Source: a virus. From it: a stretch of 17,604 bases of DNA. Location of the stretch: IMG/VR virus record IMGVR_UViG_3300021400_000219, positions 121,970 through 139,573 of that record. One strand, written 5' to 3'. Every line of letters begins with the position of its first letter. Position 1 is the first letter of the stretch. This document shows, piece after piece, positions 3,620-15,487 of this stretch. Position numbers and translations under genes: made by a program. The notes beneath the pieces were generated by a model that was given only the letters and a program-made list of their open reading frames with translations, had not been told where the DNA came from and did no database searches.

Positions 3620-3699
3620 GATGGTAAATTGCACAAAATGCGCAGGTAGTTTTTGTGCAAAATGCCGGGGCGCCCGGGCGGGAGTTAGCCGCAGCTAAC

Positions 3700-4398: not shown

Positions 4399-4761
4399 TC
4401 AAATGTCCATGGCCTTGAAGTAGGTGACACGCTTGTCAACATACTTGTCAACCATGCCGTTGAGATACAGGGTGCGGAGCAGACCGCTCACCCGCTGGCT
4501 GGTAGCATCTGCCAGCTCAGGCACCCCAGCGCAAATCTCAGAGATGCGGAAACCCTTGTCCGAATCATCCCGCAGGAAATCCAGAATCTTGGAGCGAATG
4601 GCATCGTTTTCCACCTGCTTGGCGGAAGGCTTGCGCTCAGCCGTGGACTTCTTGGCAAAGCCCTCGGCAATCTTTTCCAGCTTCTCCCGCAGGGCAGTTT
4701 CCTCAGCAGGGACGAAAGTCAGGGCCATCTCAATAGCAGTCTTATTAGTCAGCTTAGTCAT
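4399..4761 (-). CDS. winged-helix-like small DNA-binding protein, paralog family 1 (subtype b)
   Basis: True start MTKLTNK at 4761; the track ORF extends through the promoter. The C-terminus GFRISEICAGVPELADATSQRVSGLLRTLYLNGMVDKYVDKRVTYFKAM is nearly identical to that of 9645..10019. Confidence 0.9.
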   Translation of the reverse strand: MTKLTNKTAIEMALTFVPAEETALREKLEKIAEGFAKKSTAERKPSAKQVENDAIRSKILDFLRDDSDKGFRISEICAGVPELADATSQRVSGLLRTLYLNGMVDKYVDKRVTYFKAMDI

Positions 4762-4830
4762 AGTATCACTCACTTTCTCCGTTTTAACGAGTTCGGCTCT
4801 CAATCTTTTGTTTTCCTTTACTGTACTTGT

Positions 4831-7439: not shown

Positions 7440-7805
7440 TTACTCCCCCTTCACCTGGAAGCGGCTGACCCGCTTCTCCACAACCTTCTCCACGGTTCCA
7501 GCTTCTACCAGCTGGCGCAGAAGGGCGGAAGCCTGCTGGCTGGAAGAGAGTTCCAGTTCGGCGGCTACTTCCTTCGCCTGCATAGGCTCGTGGTCAGTCA
7601 GCAGTTCAACGATGCGGGCCTTGATACCCTCGTTTTCAATCTGCTTCTTGGTGGGCTTGCGCTCGCCCTTGGACTTGGAAGCGTTCCGCTTCTCATAGCT
7701 GGCCTTGCAAGCAACCAGCTTTTCCATGGCTTCCTCGTTGAAGTCAGCGGGCAGGGAAGCAATAGCCATTTCCAGAGCCTTCACATAAGTCATCTTGTTA
7801 GTCAT
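7440..7805 (-). CDS. winged-helix-like small DNA-binding protein, paralog family 1 (subtype a)
   Basis: True start MTNKMTYVKAL at 7805. Collinear with 1714..2082 (EKLxACKASYxKRN..KGERKP.KKQ.ENEG..., ...ASALLRQ.VEAGTVEKV.EKR). The stop is in the GUAA loop of AAGGGGGA/TCCCCCTT. Confidence 0.9.
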   Translation of the reverse strand: MTNKMTYVKALEMAIASLPADFNEEAMEKLVACKASYEKRNASKSKGERKPTKKQIENEGIKARIVELLTDHEPMQAKEVAAELELSSSQQASALLRQLVEAGTVEKVVEKRVSRFQVKGE

Positions 7806-10891: not shown

Positions 10892-11341
10892 TTAAAGACC
10901 TCCCAGAACTTCAAGAATATTATTTACATCATAGGCATTTCCGCCTGCATTATTCCATTCAATTCTATTTCTTTCTTCATCATCAAACAGGATGCCGATT
11001 TCATTTACTACGGTACTTTTGGGGGTGCCATAGGAAACAATTTTCACATCATCAAAATGGACGCTTGCCAGATGTTTTTTTAACCACATCTTTTTTGCTT
11101 CTGTTACAACCTTGTTGTAATCGGGGTTATCTTCCTTAGAGAGCCAAGAGACAACACCAATTTTCCATCCAAGGGCCTGTAACTTGTTCAGCTTGTGGGC
11201 CAGCGCAGAAAGCCGAATCAGGGGTTTTGCGATTTCATAGGGAAGGGGATTTCTCTCAATTAGATAGGAGAGCCAATTTTCCACGCCATACAGATCGGCA
11301 ATAGTCCCATCCATGTCGAAATAAATAGCCTTGTTCATCAT
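10892..11341 (-). CDS. HAD-superfamily hydrolase, 5'(3')-deoxyribonucleotidase (NT5C)-like, paralog 1
   Basis: True start MMNKAIYFDMDGT at 11341 (or 11338). DMDGT is HAD motif I (DxDxT). Roughly 60% identical by eye to 15023..15487. Confidence 0.85.
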   Translation of the reverse strand: MMNKAIYFDMDGTIADLYGVENWLSYLIERNPLPYEIAKPLIRLSALAHKLNKLQALGWKIGVVSWLSKEDNPDYNKVVTEAKKMWLKKHLASVHFDDVKIVSYGTPKSTVVNEIGILFDDEERNRIEWNNAGGNAYDVNNILEVLGGL

Positions 11342-12046: not shown

Positions 12047-12490
12047 TTACCCGATATGGGCGGCCAGCCAAGCCAGCATCTTTTTGCTTTCTTTAGCGCA
12101 CCGGATTTTCATCCCGCCGCCGTTCTTCTGGCTTTCCCGCTCGGTCTTGCAGAACTCGGTGCAGAAGGCGGTGAACTCGTCCCGGTTCATCATATAGACC
12201 TGATAATCGGCGGTAACGTAGGCCCAGAGGTTGCTGTGGGTGCGCTCCATATAGAGGGCCCAGATTTCATCATAAGTTTCCCGGCCTTCGCACAGGGTGG
12301 CGCTCATAAGGGTGAAGGCAGAAGCCTTGACGGAGATGAGCATTTCACCAAGCTCGATATCAGAGCCTTTGTCATATGCACCGCTATCATGGGTGGTGCG
12401 GTCGATGCCCATATAGTGGCACAGATCGTGCTCACGGGCAATGCCCTTATTAGTAGCGGGGGAAACGTGGTCAATCTTGAAGGTCTTCAT
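12047..12490 (-). CDS. hypothetical protein (147 aa), noticeably GC-richer than its neighbours
   Basis: True start MKTFKIDHV at 12490 after AAGGAAAGGGAG. GSDIELGEMLISVKAS weakly recalls a PD-(D/E)xK nuclease core; that part is low confidence. Confidence 0.85.
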   Translation of the reverse strand: MKTFKIDHVSPATNKGIAREHDLCHYMGIDRTTHDSGAYDKGSDIELGEMLISVKASAFTLMSATLCEGRETYDEIWALYMERTHSNLWAYVTADYQVYMMNRDEFTAFCTEFCKTERESQKNGGGMKIRCAKESKKMLAWLAAHIG

Positions 12491-12521
12491 CTGAAGCACT
12501 CCCTTTCCTTAGGATGGTTAT

Positions 12522-12550
12522 AGTATAGCACCATTCCCCGGGATAGTCAA
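12522..12550 (-). promoter_or_regulatory. sigma-A/70-type promoter, class C
   Basis: Minus TTGACT-N17-TATACT (TGC-extended); CCCCGGG lies in the spacer. Confidence 0.7.
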
Positions 12551-12614
12551 TACAAAATCGCAAATTTCCCCTTGTGCAAATTATACAAATGTTGGAGCGG
12601 ATTTTTGGGGGCTG

Positions 12615-12631
12615 TTGTGCAAGTTGCACAA
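12615..12631. promoter_or_regulatory. 17-bp perfect palindrome, operator candidate
   Basis: TTGTGCAA-G-TTGCACAA, read directly. Confidence 0.6.
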
Positions 12632-12669
12632 TTAGTGTAACCTGGGTCACATTAAAAGTAACAAAAGAG

Positions 12670-12697
12670 TTACAATCTCTAACAATCAATTACAATC
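12670..12697. repeat. three 10-bp-phased TWACAATC repeats (iteron-like)
   Basis: TTACAATC 12670-12677, TAACAATC 12680-12687, TTACAATC 12690-12697. The core is shared with the class B GGTTACAAT motif. Confidence 0.7.
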
Positions 12698-12727
12698 TTT
12701 TTTTTACTTTCAAAACACTTTTTTTAA

Positions 12728-12910
12728 GTTAGCAGTTAGCAAAGGGTAATGCTAGTTAGCACAAGCTAATTGTTGTTAGTTCGAACTAACTCCGGTTAGC
12801 AGGGACTAACTGGAGTTAGCCTAGGCTAACTTTAGCACACTAAAGCTGTAGCGATTTAGCGAACTAAAGTGCGCCGGACCTGGCAATTTGAACAATTAGC
12901 GGCTGCTAAC
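12728..12910. repeat. tandem array of 8 TTAG(C)-loop-(G)CTAA mini-palindromes
   Basis: Hairpins or palindromes at 12737-12754, 12755-12769, 12775-12790 (GTTAGTTCGAACTAAC), 12795-12810, 12814-12831 (AGTTAGCCTAGGCTAACT), 12830-12845, 12855-12868 and 12896-12909. Confidence 0.85.
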
Positions 12911-12913
12911 TTT

Positions 12914-13167
12914 GTGCATTTTGACGAGGTTTCGGGATTCGTCAAGTTGCACAAAAATGTAACCAAATTGTAACCAAAATTTGTGCAATTTGACGGTGGC
13001 GCGAACTCGGCTGCCAACGACTGCGCTGGGCCACAGTGCACTCGTTGGCGGCCGGTTCGTCATTTTGCACAAATGCGTGCGTGCGAGGGGCCTTAACTTT
13101 ATGCATTATGACGAAAAAAAATTTTTGTGCAAAATGACGAATCAAATCCTGATTCGTCAAAATGCAC
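12914..13167. repeat. array of GTGCA-N3-TGACG motifs in nested inverted pairs
   Basis: Forward copies at 12914-12927, 12983-12996, 13101-13114 and 13127-13140. Reverse copies at 12939-12952, 13057-13070 and 13154-13167. Further copies at 4294-4307 and 10322-10335. Confidence 0.8.
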
Positions 13168-13192
13168 AAAAAAAGAGGCATTGCCCGGCCTC
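13166..13192 (-). terminator. intrinsic terminator
   Basis: Minus GAGGC-CGGGCAAT-GCCTC followed by TTTTTTT. Confidence 0.6.
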
Positions 13193-13463
13193 ATCGGGGG
13201 GAAGCTTGACGCCCTTCCCTGGCGGTGGTGTCCACTTTCGGGGACACGCCCGGCTCCGTTTGCTAGCCGCAGGAGCGTCGCGGCGCTGGGGTCGTTCCCT
13301 TGCCCCTTGGGGAACTTGATGGCCTCCATTTCTATCCCGCGGCCTTGGGGGCGGCCTAGCTACTTTGTGGGGAGTATCGCCCACGTTTCGCCGACGCGGC
13401 TGGGATTTTGGTGTCATCGCGCATCCCGTGCGCTCAAGAGGGACAAGTCAACCTCTTTTCTAT
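13166..13463 (-). ncRNA. candidate ~300-nt GC-rich structured non-coding RNA
   Basis: Runs from promoter 13470-13498 to the intrinsic terminator GAGGC-N8-GCCTC plus T7 (13168-13192). No SD-preceded ORF. Many local hairpins, e.g. GUGUCC-CCGAAAGU-GGACAC and GGGAAG..CUUCCC. Confidence 0.4.
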
Positions 13464-13469
13464 GGTCTT

Positions 13470-13498
13470 ATTATAGCACCCGCAAGGGGTTTTGTCAA
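13470..13498 (-). promoter_or_regulatory. sigma-A/70-type promoter driving the non-coding transcript
   Basis: Minus TTGACA-N17-TATAAT (TGC-extended); an A13-containing UP-like tract upstream (plus-strand T run 13509-13521). Confidence 0.7.
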
Positions 13499-13540
13499 GG
13501 GTTTTTTCTTTTTTTTTTTTTGTTCCCGGAGGGCCGGGGC

Positions 13541-13699
13541 TTAGTAGCCCCAGCCGATGGAGGTTACCCTCCATCCCTCCTCCCGCAGTGCGGGATAAAG
13601 GGCGGCGAAACTCGCCAACCCGTGTTCCCACACACGGGACTCACAGGCCCACAGGCCAGTGAAGAGGTTCCGATGGAACCGGATGTATTCAATTTTCAT
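13541..13699 (-). CDS. hypothetical protein (52 aa)
   Basis: True start MKIEYIRFHRNLF at 13699 after AAAGGAGG. The stop is in the GGGGCT-N4-AGCCCC hairpin. Confidence 0.6.
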   Translation of the reverse strand: MKIEYIRFHRNLFTGLWACESRVWEHGLASFAALYPALREEGWRVTSIGWGY

Positions 13700-13729
13700 G
13701 GAAGTGACCTCCTTTGTTTTACTGTAATC

Positions 13730-13758
13730 ATTATAGCAGACCCGCCCGGGTTTGTCAA
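13730..13758 (-). promoter_or_regulatory. sigma-A/70-type promoter (gene-proximal tandem)
   Basis: Minus TTGACA-N17-TATAAT (TGC-extended); CCCGGG lies within the spacer. Confidence 0.7.
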
Positions 13759-13924
13759 CCCTTTTTTTCATTTTTTTTATTTTTTTTTGGTTCCCCATAC
13801 CCCTCCGGGGAACCACTGGCCGGCTATTTTTTACCTCCCGCCCTAGGGGGTGGCCCTTGGTACTTTGTGGGGTATCTTGCCCACGTTTCCCAGAGGGAGG
13901 GCCCGGAGGGTTTCCCCTCCTGAC
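13759..13924 (-). ncRNA. candidate short GC-rich RNA between tandem promoters
   Basis: Starts after promoter 13931-13959. Contains GGAGGG-GAAA-CCCTCC and GGTTCCCC..GGGGAACC hairpins and a ~50-nt block homologous to 13341-13392. Confidence 0.3.
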
Positions 13925-13930
13925 ATGATT

Positions 13931-13959
13931 ATAATACCACAGGCCCGGCTAAAAGTCTA
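13931..13959 (-). promoter_or_regulatory. sigma-A/70-type promoter (distal tandem; back-to-back with a plus-sense TTGACA box)
   Basis: Minus TAGACT-N17-TATTAT (TGG-extended). Its -35 overlaps a plus-sense TTGACA in GTCTATTGACA (13955-13965). Confidence 0.55.
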
Positions 13960-14007
13960 TTGACAAATCTCACAAATCGGGATGTTCTATTTTGTGCATT
14001 TTTACTC

Positions 14008-14037
14008 TTGACAGCCGAGCCTATTTTGTGGTATAAT
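14008..14037 (+). promoter_or_regulatory. plus-strand promoter facing a GC-rich island
   Basis: TTGACA-N18-TATAAT (TGG-extended); the upstream CATTTTTACTCTTGACA is conserved with 16916-16944. Confidence 0.6.
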
Positions 14038-14044
14038 ATTTCTG

Positions 14045-14171
14045 TACTGCCTGCGCGCGCGGTCGCCGGCCGTTAGCGGGGGCTAACTGTGCCTGGGTGT
14101 GCGCCTTTATTGCAATAAAGCACTAAAGTGCACAAGGGCAAAAAACTACGAGGATTTTTTAATCCTCGTAG
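14045..14171 (+). ncRNA. candidate small RNA / GC-rich island, copy A
   Basis: CTGCGCGCGCGGTCGCCGGCCGTTAGCGGGGGCTAAC...GTGTGCGCCTTTATTGCAATAAAG... running into hairpin 14146-14171, which is shared with the convergent minus-strand gene. Confidence 0.3.
14139..14171 (-). terminator. intrinsic terminator containing the stop codon
   Basis: Minus CTACGAGGATT-AAAA-AATCCTCGTAG followed by TTTTTTG; the stop of 14159..14290 lies in the loop. Confidence 0.75.
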
Positions 14172-14290
14172 TCAATGGCGATGACCTTCCAGCCCTTGGG
14201 CGGTTCGTAGTTTTCCGGCAGGCCCTTCCAGAGAATCAATTCAGTATCGGCCCACTCTCCATCAATCTTTCTGATTTCAATGCTCCACAT
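14159..14290 (-). CDS. hypothetical micro-protein (43 aa)
   Basis: True start MWSIEIRKIDGEW at 14290 after AGAAAGGA; the conserved 5'UTR is shared with 1714..2082 and 17067..17294. Confidence 0.6.
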   Translation of the reverse strand: MWSIEIRKIDGEWADTELILWKGLPENYEPPKGWKVIAIDYED

Positions 14291-14342
14291 AATCTTTTTT
14301 CCTTTCTGGTTTGTTAGGTTTTCCTTCCCTCTTTCTGATTGT

Positions 14343-15022: not shown

Positions 15023-15487
15023 TTACTTCCCTCTCGCCCATGTCAGAACGTCCATAATCATTTCAGGATTGAAGGCCCAACCTTCCATTTCTTCCCACTC
15101 AATCACATTGTTTTCTTCATCGTCAAACAGAATCCCATTTTTCACGGTGGGCACTGTGCTTTTGGGCGTCCCATAGGGAACAATGTTGATTTCATCAAAG
15201 TGAACGCTTGCAAGGTGTTTCTTGAGCCAATTCTTTTTGGCTTCAATAACCTTTTCGTCAAATTCCTTGTTGCTATTCTTAGCTAACCAACTAACTACCC
15301 CGATTGTCCATCCCTTTTTCTGAAGGTTATTCAACCGACGGGCAAGGGCGTTCATGTTTACCAGAGGCTTAGCAACTTCATAGGGGAAGGGATTGTTTTC
15401 CAGTAGATAACCCAGCCAGTTTTCTACGCCGTAGAAGTTGGCGATTGTTCCATCCATGTCAAAGTAGATTGCCCGATTGATTTTCAT
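15023..15487 (-). CDS. HAD-superfamily hydrolase, 5'(3')-deoxyribonucleotidase (NT5C)-like, paralog 2
   Basis: 154-aa ORF; AAAGGAG SD; contains YFDMDGTIA. The stop is in the GUAA loop of AGAGGGAA/TTCCCTCT (15015-15034). Confidence 0.9.
   Translation of the reverse strand: MKINRAIYFDMDGTIANFYGVENWLGYLLENNPFPYEVAKPLVNMNALARRLNNLQKKGWTIGVVSWLAKNSNKEFDEKVIEAKKNWLKKHLASVHFDEINIVPYGTPKSTVPTVKNGILFDDEENNVIEWEEMEGWAFNPEMIMDVLTWARGK

Follow-up and report, generated by a model that had tools for sequence, protein, structure and literature searches.

What is encoded in some 300 nt of viral DNA that begin at a consensus promoter, end at an intrinsic terminator, and hold no convincing protein gene? This question was raised by an earlier note on a stretch of 17,604 nt (IMG/VR record IMGVR_UViG_3300021400_000219, positions 121,970 to 139,573), which in its full length we call the window. 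The note, made from the sequence alone, had proposed a G+C-rich transcript at 13166-13463 and had noticed that about 50 nt of it recur further upstream. Our comparison of the window with related sequences shows that this predicted transcript, RNA C, and a second RNA encoded upstream, RNA A, are two paralogous copies of an uncatalogued, non-coding, structured RNA module of ~115 nt. Coordinates are those of the window and, unless stated otherwise, the elements lie on its minus strand.

The signals that bracket RNA C are those that had been described. Its promoter, promoter P3 (TTGACA-17-TGcTATAAT, 13498-13470), is a perfect sigma-70 site with 12/12 matches and an extended -10 TG. An A-tract upstream of it (13499-13527) resembles an UP element, and equivalent consensus promoters precede the RNA in the related contigs L005, L048, and L043. 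At the other end, the intrinsic terminator GAGGC-CGGGCAAU-GCCUC plus U7 is present (hairpin 13192-13175, T7 13174-13168), though its stem of 5 bp is modest. The RNA predicted from these two signals (13166-13463) is ~298 nt long and runs from a start near 13463 to the end of the terminator U-tract. Its G+C content is indeed markedly high, 0.61 in 13201-13500 versus ~0.40 for most of the window. Two open reading frames (ORFs) run over RNA C on its own strand, 13099-13329 (76 amino acids, aa) and 13157-13417 (86 aa). As had been observed for the first of these, both lack a real Shine-Dalgarno sequence and read through the terminator, and the transcript presents no combination of Shine-Dalgarno and ATG.

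RNA C is modular. A 5' hairpin domain (13403-13463), which is lineage-specific, carries the hairpins AAGAGG/CCUCUU (13457-13436, loop UUGACUUGUC) and GCGCA/UGCGC (13433-13419). It is followed by the core module (13400-13294), delimited by a covariance-model match and by pair counts, and by a separate, near-invariant 3' domain (13293-13193) with several hairpins such as GUGUCC/GGACAC. The whole RNA is identical or near-identical in L001-L004, L010, and L053. Across the window, L005, and L048, the 3' domain is 95-100% identical while the core modules differ by ~40%, and its sole differences are one compensatory change from U-A to A-U and one loop base. This near-identity may reflect either recent recombination or strong constraint; the hairpins of the 3' domain are predicted from two variants. 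No Rfam family matched the 3' domain.

The duplication proved to be genuine but larger than initially perceived. The segments 13347-13394 and 13847-13894, spaced by ~500 nt with the second copy upstream, are 77% identical over 48 nt (80% over 56 nt by blastn, E = 2e-7), and the pattern CGTGGGC-N(4-10)-CCCCAC is found twice in the window versus 0.00 expected in shuffles. Rather than a block of ~50 nt, the repeat is the core of a ~115-nt module that the window contains twice and that comprises between four and seven helices along with either one or two pseudoknots. We built a covariance model (R1) from a hand-made alignment, after compensatory changes had been spotted by eye, and left the C type out of it. 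This model finds the core of RNA C in the window at 32.5 bits (E = 1.6e-7); the duplicated motif therefore represents homology across the whole module, which is an independent confirmation. The corresponding covariance-model match of RNA A scores 106 bits.

Contigs with homologs were gathered via an identical or related copy of a downstream gene for a 147-aa protein. Six sequence types of the module, with units that are 60-80% identical, were distinguished across these related metagenomic phage contigs. Type A is found in the window, L001-5, L008, L010, L154, and L155, and type C in the window, L001-4, L010, and L053. Type C' (L005, L048) is an A-like core fused to the 3' domain of C. Types U1 and U2 lie head-to-tail in one predicted transcript of L043/L044, where the last hairpin of U2 (helix P4) is itself the terminator. 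Finally, type V is found in L076/L077, a lineage whose anchor protein is 60% identical. A strong promoter and a terminator accompany the transcript of each lineage, and RNA C, C', U1-U2, and V are all organised as small-RNA genes, with their own promoter and intrinsic terminator around a non-coding stretch. RNA A has a promoter without a terminator of its own.

The case for a structured RNA rests on the comparison between sequences, because the folding energy of single sequences is not unusual. A first model comprises the closing helix P1, the arm P2, the hairpin P3, and the terminal hairpin P4. On a covariance-model alignment, 97.3% of its cells are paired and 18 of the 25 pairs have changed on both sides, as compared to 4-6 when the partner strand is slid by 1-3 columns; none of 500 shuffles reached the real count. 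RNAalifold returns the full model from the same alignment. The GUGGG..CCCAC hairpin that the earlier note had seen in the repeat is helix P2, and it covaries: other lineages present GGGAG/CUCCC, GGAAG/CUUCC, or GAGAG/CUCUC, and the arm is flanked by the conserved strands GGGAAA(C/A) and (A/G)AAGUA. The first inner pair of helix P3 shows clean compensations (A-U, U-A, C-G, G·U). In addition, a C-rich segment forms a pseudoknot with the loop of P4, in which three of five pairs covary versus none in slid controls (ACCCC/GGGGU, ACCCU/AGGGU, ACCUC/GAGG, GCCGC/GCGGC, and GCCCC/GGGGC). In RNA C, these elements are P1 (CCGCG 13399-13395 with CGCGG 13341-13337), P2 (GUGGG 13384-13380 with CCCAC 13371-13367), P4 (GUUCCC 13315-13310 with GGGAAC 13299-13294), and the pseudoknot (GCCCC 13352-13348 with GGGGC 13306-13302).

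When RNAalifold was applied to an unguided MAFFT alignment, P2 and P4 were recovered and the centre of the module was paired differently, by three helices that we call c, X, and Y. Helix c joins UGG, 5' of a conserved GAAAC, with CCA, 3' of a conserved AAAGUA; helices X and Y join the G+C-rich half of a 19-nt linker with the GGCC...GGC that flanks the pseudoknot strand. On a register-correct alignment, this second model again has 97.3% of cells paired and presents strong covariation, with 24 of 34 pairs changed on both sides versus 4-9 in slid controls; of the ten pairs in helices c, X, and Y, which are 94-100% paired, six covary. The second model keeps the pseudoknot strand free and accounts for the conserved linker length and for the G+C 'palindrome'. 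It also sets GAA opposite AGUA, which we take to be reminiscent of a loop-E or bulged-G internal loop and which is not conserved in V. Across about six lineages, and with alignments that are partly hand-made, compensatory changes exceed the controls. The argument for structure is thus drawn from covariation and not from the earlier impression of many local hairpins, since single sequences do not fold with exceptional energy. On these comparative grounds we regard P1, P2, P4, and the pseudoknot as established; for the centre, either P3 or X/Y/c applies, or possibly both in alternation, and X/Y/c would make the fold doubly pseudoknotted.

The same comparisons inform on the strand and on coding. 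G·U pairs are found in P2 (RNA A of L003, U1), P4 (L154/L155, V), P1 (U1), and X (C' of L005, U2 of L043), and because these would be A·C mismatches on the opposite strand, selection acts on the minus-strand RNA. Indels of 1, 2, 4, and 5 nt separate the lineages, and substitutions are roughly equal over the three codon phases. Coding is excluded because of the 1-2-nt indels and the absence of codon periodicity, in agreement with the earlier reading of the transcript as non-coding; the homologs present no start with a Shine-Dalgarno, no conserved frame, and no codon-periodic substitution. In the window and L005, one frame is free of stops across the 3' domain; this frame has no Shine-Dalgarno and crosses the terminator, and its few differences follow base pairs.

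RNA A lies between two promoters, as had been noted. Promoter P1 (TAGACT-17-TGgTATTAT, 13959-13931) was found by eye and is weaker than the sites listed in our scan, being promoter-like rather than perfect; it is conserved in L005 (as TAGACA), L008, and L154. The RNA (13924-13789) consists of a 5' GNRA hairpin, GGAGGG-GAAA-CCCUCC (13920-13905), and the core module (13900-13789). Within the core, we located P1 (13900-13895 with 13839-13834), helix c (UGG 13892-13890 with CCA 13860-13858), P2 (13884-13880 with 13871-13867), helix X (GGCC 13855-13852 with 13821-13818), helix Y (GGC 13842-13840 with GCC 13824-13822), P4 (13814-13807 with 13796-13789), and the pseudoknot (ACCCC 13851-13847 with GGGGU 13803-13799). 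An A-tract follows RNA A, with no U-tract, and then promoter P2 (13758-13730), a perfect consensus site that separates RNA A from orf52. This gene (13699-13541), located between the two RNA copies, encodes a Trp-rich protein of 52 aa behind a strong Shine-Dalgarno, AAAGGAGG. RNA A, orf52, and RNA C constitute a nested unit with three promoters and a sole terminator at 13192-13168. The orf52 product has no match in Pfam, PHROG, or PADLOC, and its family comprises five clusters in 5.8 billion proteins. The RNA module was found in the unit of orf52 in 4/4 cases, that is, in the three clusters whose contigs were read (window, L043/L044, L154/L155) and for the copy of L008; the contig of a fourth cluster, L153, is too short to judge its RNA neighbourhood. 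This association could represent a functional link or simply shared descent.

Among close relatives, the flanks of the RNA are conserved and the cassette region is variable, with the RNA present, swapped, or absent. The module is absent from L007, L041/42, and L046/47, it was not found on the short contig L153, and it is absent from most of ~95 related loci. In 80 Joint Genome Institute (JGI) metagenome loci anchored on the 147-aa gene, the module was detected only in L053, L076, and L077, and a broader second model detected none more; further contig look-ups added only L154/L155. DNA-pattern and protein scans of IMG/VR yielded no matches, or chance matches in coding DNA. A pattern scan of bacterial genomes yielded 20 matches, none confirmed by the covariance model, and a candidate from that scan, L135, was dismissed on inspection. 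The module was not found in INPHARED: a blastn search of 12600-14200 against 50,697 phage records returned no match. These results indicate that the RNA cassettes are accessory units with a patchy distribution, located in an early region that is hypervariable.

The surroundings of the cassettes are those of an early region. Nearly all plausible genes lie on the minus strand and are short, with strong Shine-Dalgarno sequences, and most have their own near-perfect sigma-70 promoter. Promoter-like sites number 87 in the window versus 32 expected. Ten sites are perfect (12/12), and all but one of them lie on the minus strand. The proteins that can be annotated are phage-like: a phrog_20187 protein, two paralogous NT5C-like 5'-deoxyribonucleotidases (10892-11341 and 15023-15487), and three paralogous winged-helix proteins (MarR/Csa3-like helix-turn-helix; 1714-2082, 4399-4803, and 7440-7805), whose genes are scattered among orphan early genes. 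Contigs that carry an identical copy of the gene neighbouring RNA C are 67-174 kb long and come from gut metagenomes. The closest phages by tblastn are Enterococcus phages of ~140 kb and the gut phage Phass-1, at 35-43% identity. We conclude that the window is a promoter-dense, host-takeover-like early region of a large (at least 136 kb) uncultured gut phage, a distant relative of Herelleviridae-like Enterococcus phages. A Gram-positive-type host is suggested by the extended -10 promoters and AGGAGG ribosome-binding sites.

Taken as a whole, it is on balance probable that the locus encodes a new pseudoknotted, structured small-RNA module in two copies, made as an abundant, early, trans-acting RNA. 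Such RNAs would be produced in large amounts early in infection as stand-alone molecules, stable via their 5' hairpin and terminator, and would act in trans by their three-dimensional shape, which would bind and titrate either a protein, of host or phage origin, or a small ligand. A trans-acting, shape-based role is consistent with the strong early promoters, the 5' hairpins and terminators, the two copies or tandem pair, and the cassette-like gain and loss. The conserved bases sit in junction strands and not in a long single-stranded seed, which fits recognition by shape. The RNAs would then be accessory host-takeover or counter-defence decoys rather than antisense regulators. This specific decoy step, which is drawn by analogy, is a tentative suggestion and is perhaps correct.

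Several observations weigh against this interpretation. The folding energies of single sequences are unexceptional (z = -0.27 for RNA C and z = -1.5 for RNA A). Only about six lineages are independent, and two of the alignments were hand-built or model-fitted, so that the counts lean towards the proposed structure. RNA A lacks its own terminator and could be merely the 5' leader of the orf52 operon, acting in cis. Two mutually exclusive central pairings both covary, which one would more readily expect of a switch or a folding pathway than of a static decoy. Finally, a decoy function in trans is itself argued from analogy.

Other functions can be proposed for the same fold. It is unlikely, though conceivable, that the module is a phage-made aptamer or decoy, a doubly pseudoknotted RNA of riboswitch grade without an expression platform, which is made in bulk as infection begins and soaks up a host immune signal or protein, or jams a host RNase; the two covariation-backed folds might then reflect a switch induced by binding, and the module would be the first structured-RNA 'sponge' in phage counter-defence.

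Alternatively, the module might be a self-cleaving ribozyme or RNA-processing element that cuts the nested RNA A / orf52 / RNA C transcripts apart. Phages are rich in small ribozymes, and the compact fold of ~115 nt with one or two pseudoknots, its strongly conserved junction purines, and its position at operon ends and in tandem would all suit one. The 5' hairpin of RNA C also faintly resembles RAGATH-28, a motif found near ribozyme-associated genes: its loop GGUUGACUUGUCCC is similar to the consensus GGUUGAUUCGUCCC. The match to the 85-nt model of this family (RF03052; 13385-13457, minus strand) reaches 22.2 bits (E = 0.34), far below the gathering threshold of 45.3, and the C', U, and V lineages lack this feature; a search of the literature on RAGATH-28 returned nothing useful. 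Hammerhead, twister, twister-sister, hatchet, pistol, HDV-like (hepatitis delta virus-like), and glmS models gave no match at E ≤ 10, and the strand order is unlike that of the HDV double pseudoknot. Moreover, each RNA has its own promoter, so that processing is not needed. These observations make a catalytic role improbable. A match to drz-agam-1 at 14 bits was discarded, since it lies on the wrong strand and over the terminator.

There is a similarly small chance that the module is a cis-acting, riboswitch-like element in which the alternation of P3 with the long-range helices X/Y controls read-through or translation of neighbouring early genes. The mutually exclusive central pairings, each with compensatory changes, are what such a switch would produce; RNA A stands upstream of orf52 without a terminator, and a U-tract follows P4 in U2. 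However, RNA C, C', U1-U2, and V form the 3' end of their units. After each comes a terminator and then a stretch of operator-like non-coding DNA, 300-900 nt long, before a next gene that is served by a promoter of its own. No expression platform was found, as in four of the five transcript types the terminator at the end lies far from the gene that follows. Between RNA A and orf52 stands the perfect promoter P2, four of the six lineages have a P4 that is not a terminator, and the neighbouring genes are unrelated small ORFans.

An RNA-stability element, analogous to viral exoribonuclease-resistant RNAs (xrRNAs), that blocks 5'-3' decay (by RNase J in Firmicutes) and so protects early mRNAs or leaves a stable 3' fragment seems quite unlikely. 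The junction with a long-range pseudoknot to a downstream element, the tandem copies at transcript ends, and the near-invariant segment directly 3' of the core of RNA C are reminiscent of such elements. Nevertheless, no xrRNA family of Rfam matches, and the simple 5' hairpins already present would suffice.

We also considered whether the locus acts as DNA, as a replication origin or hub with a primer or R-loop transcript that ends at an iteron block. The terminator of RNA C adjoins a non-coding block of ~600 bp (12560-13175) that carries seven of the ten TTTGTGCA-N3-TGACGA sites of the window and five phased GTTAGC-N4-GCTAAC palindromes. In the RNA-less relatives L007, L154, L041, and L046, however, the block follows ordinary protein genes; RNA A lies 600 nt from it, and conservation tracks RNA pairing, including G·U, not a DNA motif, which leaves this proposal very improbable. 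Lastly, it is hardly credible that no functional RNA exists here and that the stretch is a leftover rich in G+C, a short gene for a protein, or a DNA repeat whose complementarity arose by chance. G+C-rich sequence pairs readily, shuffles fold equally well, and an ORF frame has no stop across the 3' domain in the window and L005, but compensatory changes exceed those of the slid and shuffled controls by far, frame-breaking indels are common, the ORFs cross the terminator U-tract without a Shine-Dalgarno, and promoters and terminators are kept in every lineage.

Several neighbouring elements were recorded alongside the module. The TTTGTGCA-N3-TGACGA sites, which are operator- or iteron-like, number 10 in the window versus 0.15 expected; those in the non-coding block often form inverted pairs, and singles are found at 3652, 4294, and 10319. 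Relatives carry arrays of GGTTACAA repeats in the block after the terminator of RNA C. The palindrome GTTAGC-N4-GCTAAC occurs 20 times versus 0.5 expected, mostly between transcription units (e.g., 1674, 3684, 7401, 8643, 14072, 15653, and 16981), with the members of the phased cluster at 12735-12830 exactly 20 bp apart. The palindrome might bind one of the three winged-helix proteins, or else form an RNA hairpin that recurs. On the plus strand, a single promoter is perfect (14008-14037); it diverges from promoter P1 and would transcribe a G+C-rich stretch of ~130 nt (within 14008-14175, plus strand). This stretch folds far better than shuffles (z = -5.75), includes a GTTAGC palindrome as well as the upstream gene's bidirectional terminator, and has a paralogue of 71-74% identity elsewhere in L001-L005 and L041.

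A second promoter-to-terminator unit without a long ORF is found at 1268-1621 (promoter 1621-1593, terminator 1292-1268). It contains two mini-ORFs of seven codons, each behind a copy of GAGGTGAT, MYYSGFT (1446-1423) and MYPTGFI (1361-1338), each followed by similar sequence, and a G+C-rich structured leader lies upstream. In L043 (2700-2745) and L046 (2750-2835), a common G+C-rich leader, GAGGGUGCGGGGGYCGGACCCGCAA, precedes unrelated small early genes and may be another conserved RNA hairpin element. The gene downstream of RNA C (12047-12490) encodes the 147-aa protein, which belongs to a large family, with >150 clusters (56-95% identity) from metagenomes of gut and rumen, and has no match in Pfam, PHROG, or PADLOC. 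Its AlphaFold model has a predicted local distance difference test (pLDDT) score of 94.8, the best Protein Data Bank (PDB) fold matches are PD-(D/E)xK nucleases (DpnI, Hjc) at a non-significant E ≥ 0.1, and its conserved residues are D44 ... S53-V-K55. A second paralogue lies just upstream of the V RNA in L076/L077. We rejected this neighbour as a partner of the RNA, as the gene usually occurs without it and the fold matches are weak.

How does the module compare to known RNA families? The earlier note could assign it to none, and a search of the whole window against Rfam 15 likewise returned no match at gathering thresholds; at E ≤ 10, nothing relevant was found in 12500-14300 of the window, in L077 3250-3600, or in L043 3200-3520. 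ARAGORN detected no transfer RNA or transfer-messenger RNA in the window, and a tRNA-like reading was dropped. Matches to CRISPR repeats were noise (13-18 bits), and readings as a CRISPR repeat or anti-CRISPR RNA or as a 6S-like RNA were dropped, as were a retron and a guide RNA, for which no partner genes are present. The idea that the pseudoknot strands mimic Shine-Dalgarno or anti-Shine-Dalgarno sequences was abandoned, since U1 maintains this pairing as GCCGC/GCGGC. Likenesses to GEMM-I, ykkC, glycine, and SAM-IV riboswitches are supported by no Rfam match.

The architecture nonetheless recalls several known systems. The SAM-IV riboswitch shares a three-helix core and a 3' hairpin tied back by a loop pseudoknot within ~119 nt, and the HDV-like ribozyme shares the nested double pseudoknot of our second model, with a different strand order. 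The conserved nucleotides of both are unrelated to those of the module, neither Rfam model matches, and the module has no expression platform and no association with metabolic genes. Flavivirus-type xrRNAs, which often occur as tandem duplicates at transcript ends, are alike in combining a junction with a long-range pseudoknot to a downstream element; the phage module is larger, and its pseudoknot partner is a hairpin loop. ToxI-like antitoxin RNAs and phage RNA anti-CRISPRs are known RNA-based counter-defence tools and, like the module, are phage-borne repeated structured units followed by a terminator. ToxI-like units are identical repeats of 34-36 nt, whereas those of the module are 115 nt long and diverged; no ToxN-like or cas gene is found nearby, the downstream 147-aa gene mostly occurs without the RNA and has no ToxN-like match, and the tandem near-identical ~36-nt repeats with an endoribonuclease toxin that characterise type III toxin-antitoxin systems are not seen here. 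A parallel in logic is offered by the adenovirus virus-associated (VA) RNAs I and II and the stable RNAs C and D of phage T4, which are paired, paralogous, abundant viral small RNAs, the VA RNAs being protein decoys. These are also side-by-side related structured RNAs of ~120-300 nt with junction or pseudoknot cores; the analogy is one of logic alone, as the host here is bacterial and no homology is expected.

Phage early regions are usually read as strings of tiny orphan proteins, and here two of the 'genes' appear to be elaborate RNAs, with folds as intricate as those of a riboswitch or small ribozyme, duplicated, swapped as cassettes between relatives, and outside the catalogue of RNA families. 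Should their action on the host be in trans, phages would be using the shape of RNAs, in addition to proteins, for takeover or counter-defence; should they cleave or switch, a new fold for catalysis or sensing would be added. Because the module is small and has clear limits, and because its six lineages provide a natural mutational series, probing, cleavage, pull-down, and ligand screens are feasible. Gut and phage data have already yielded large catalogues of unnamed candidate structured RNAs (PMC8040213, PMC10690425). No matching sequence is contained in the text of the first 200 of the 408 supplementary files of PMC8040213, and the module may still be listed in a previous catalogue. As far as these sources were covered, their orphan motifs and those of the RAGATH type are alike in their origin from uncultured phages or the gut, their covariation, and their own promoter and terminator. 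The module differs from RAGATH-type motifs in that it shares with them only the faint RAGATH-28 match, to the lineage-specific 5' hairpin of RNA C. Orphan RNA motifs are often found, and this one stands out among them as unusually complex, duplicated, and located in a takeover region.

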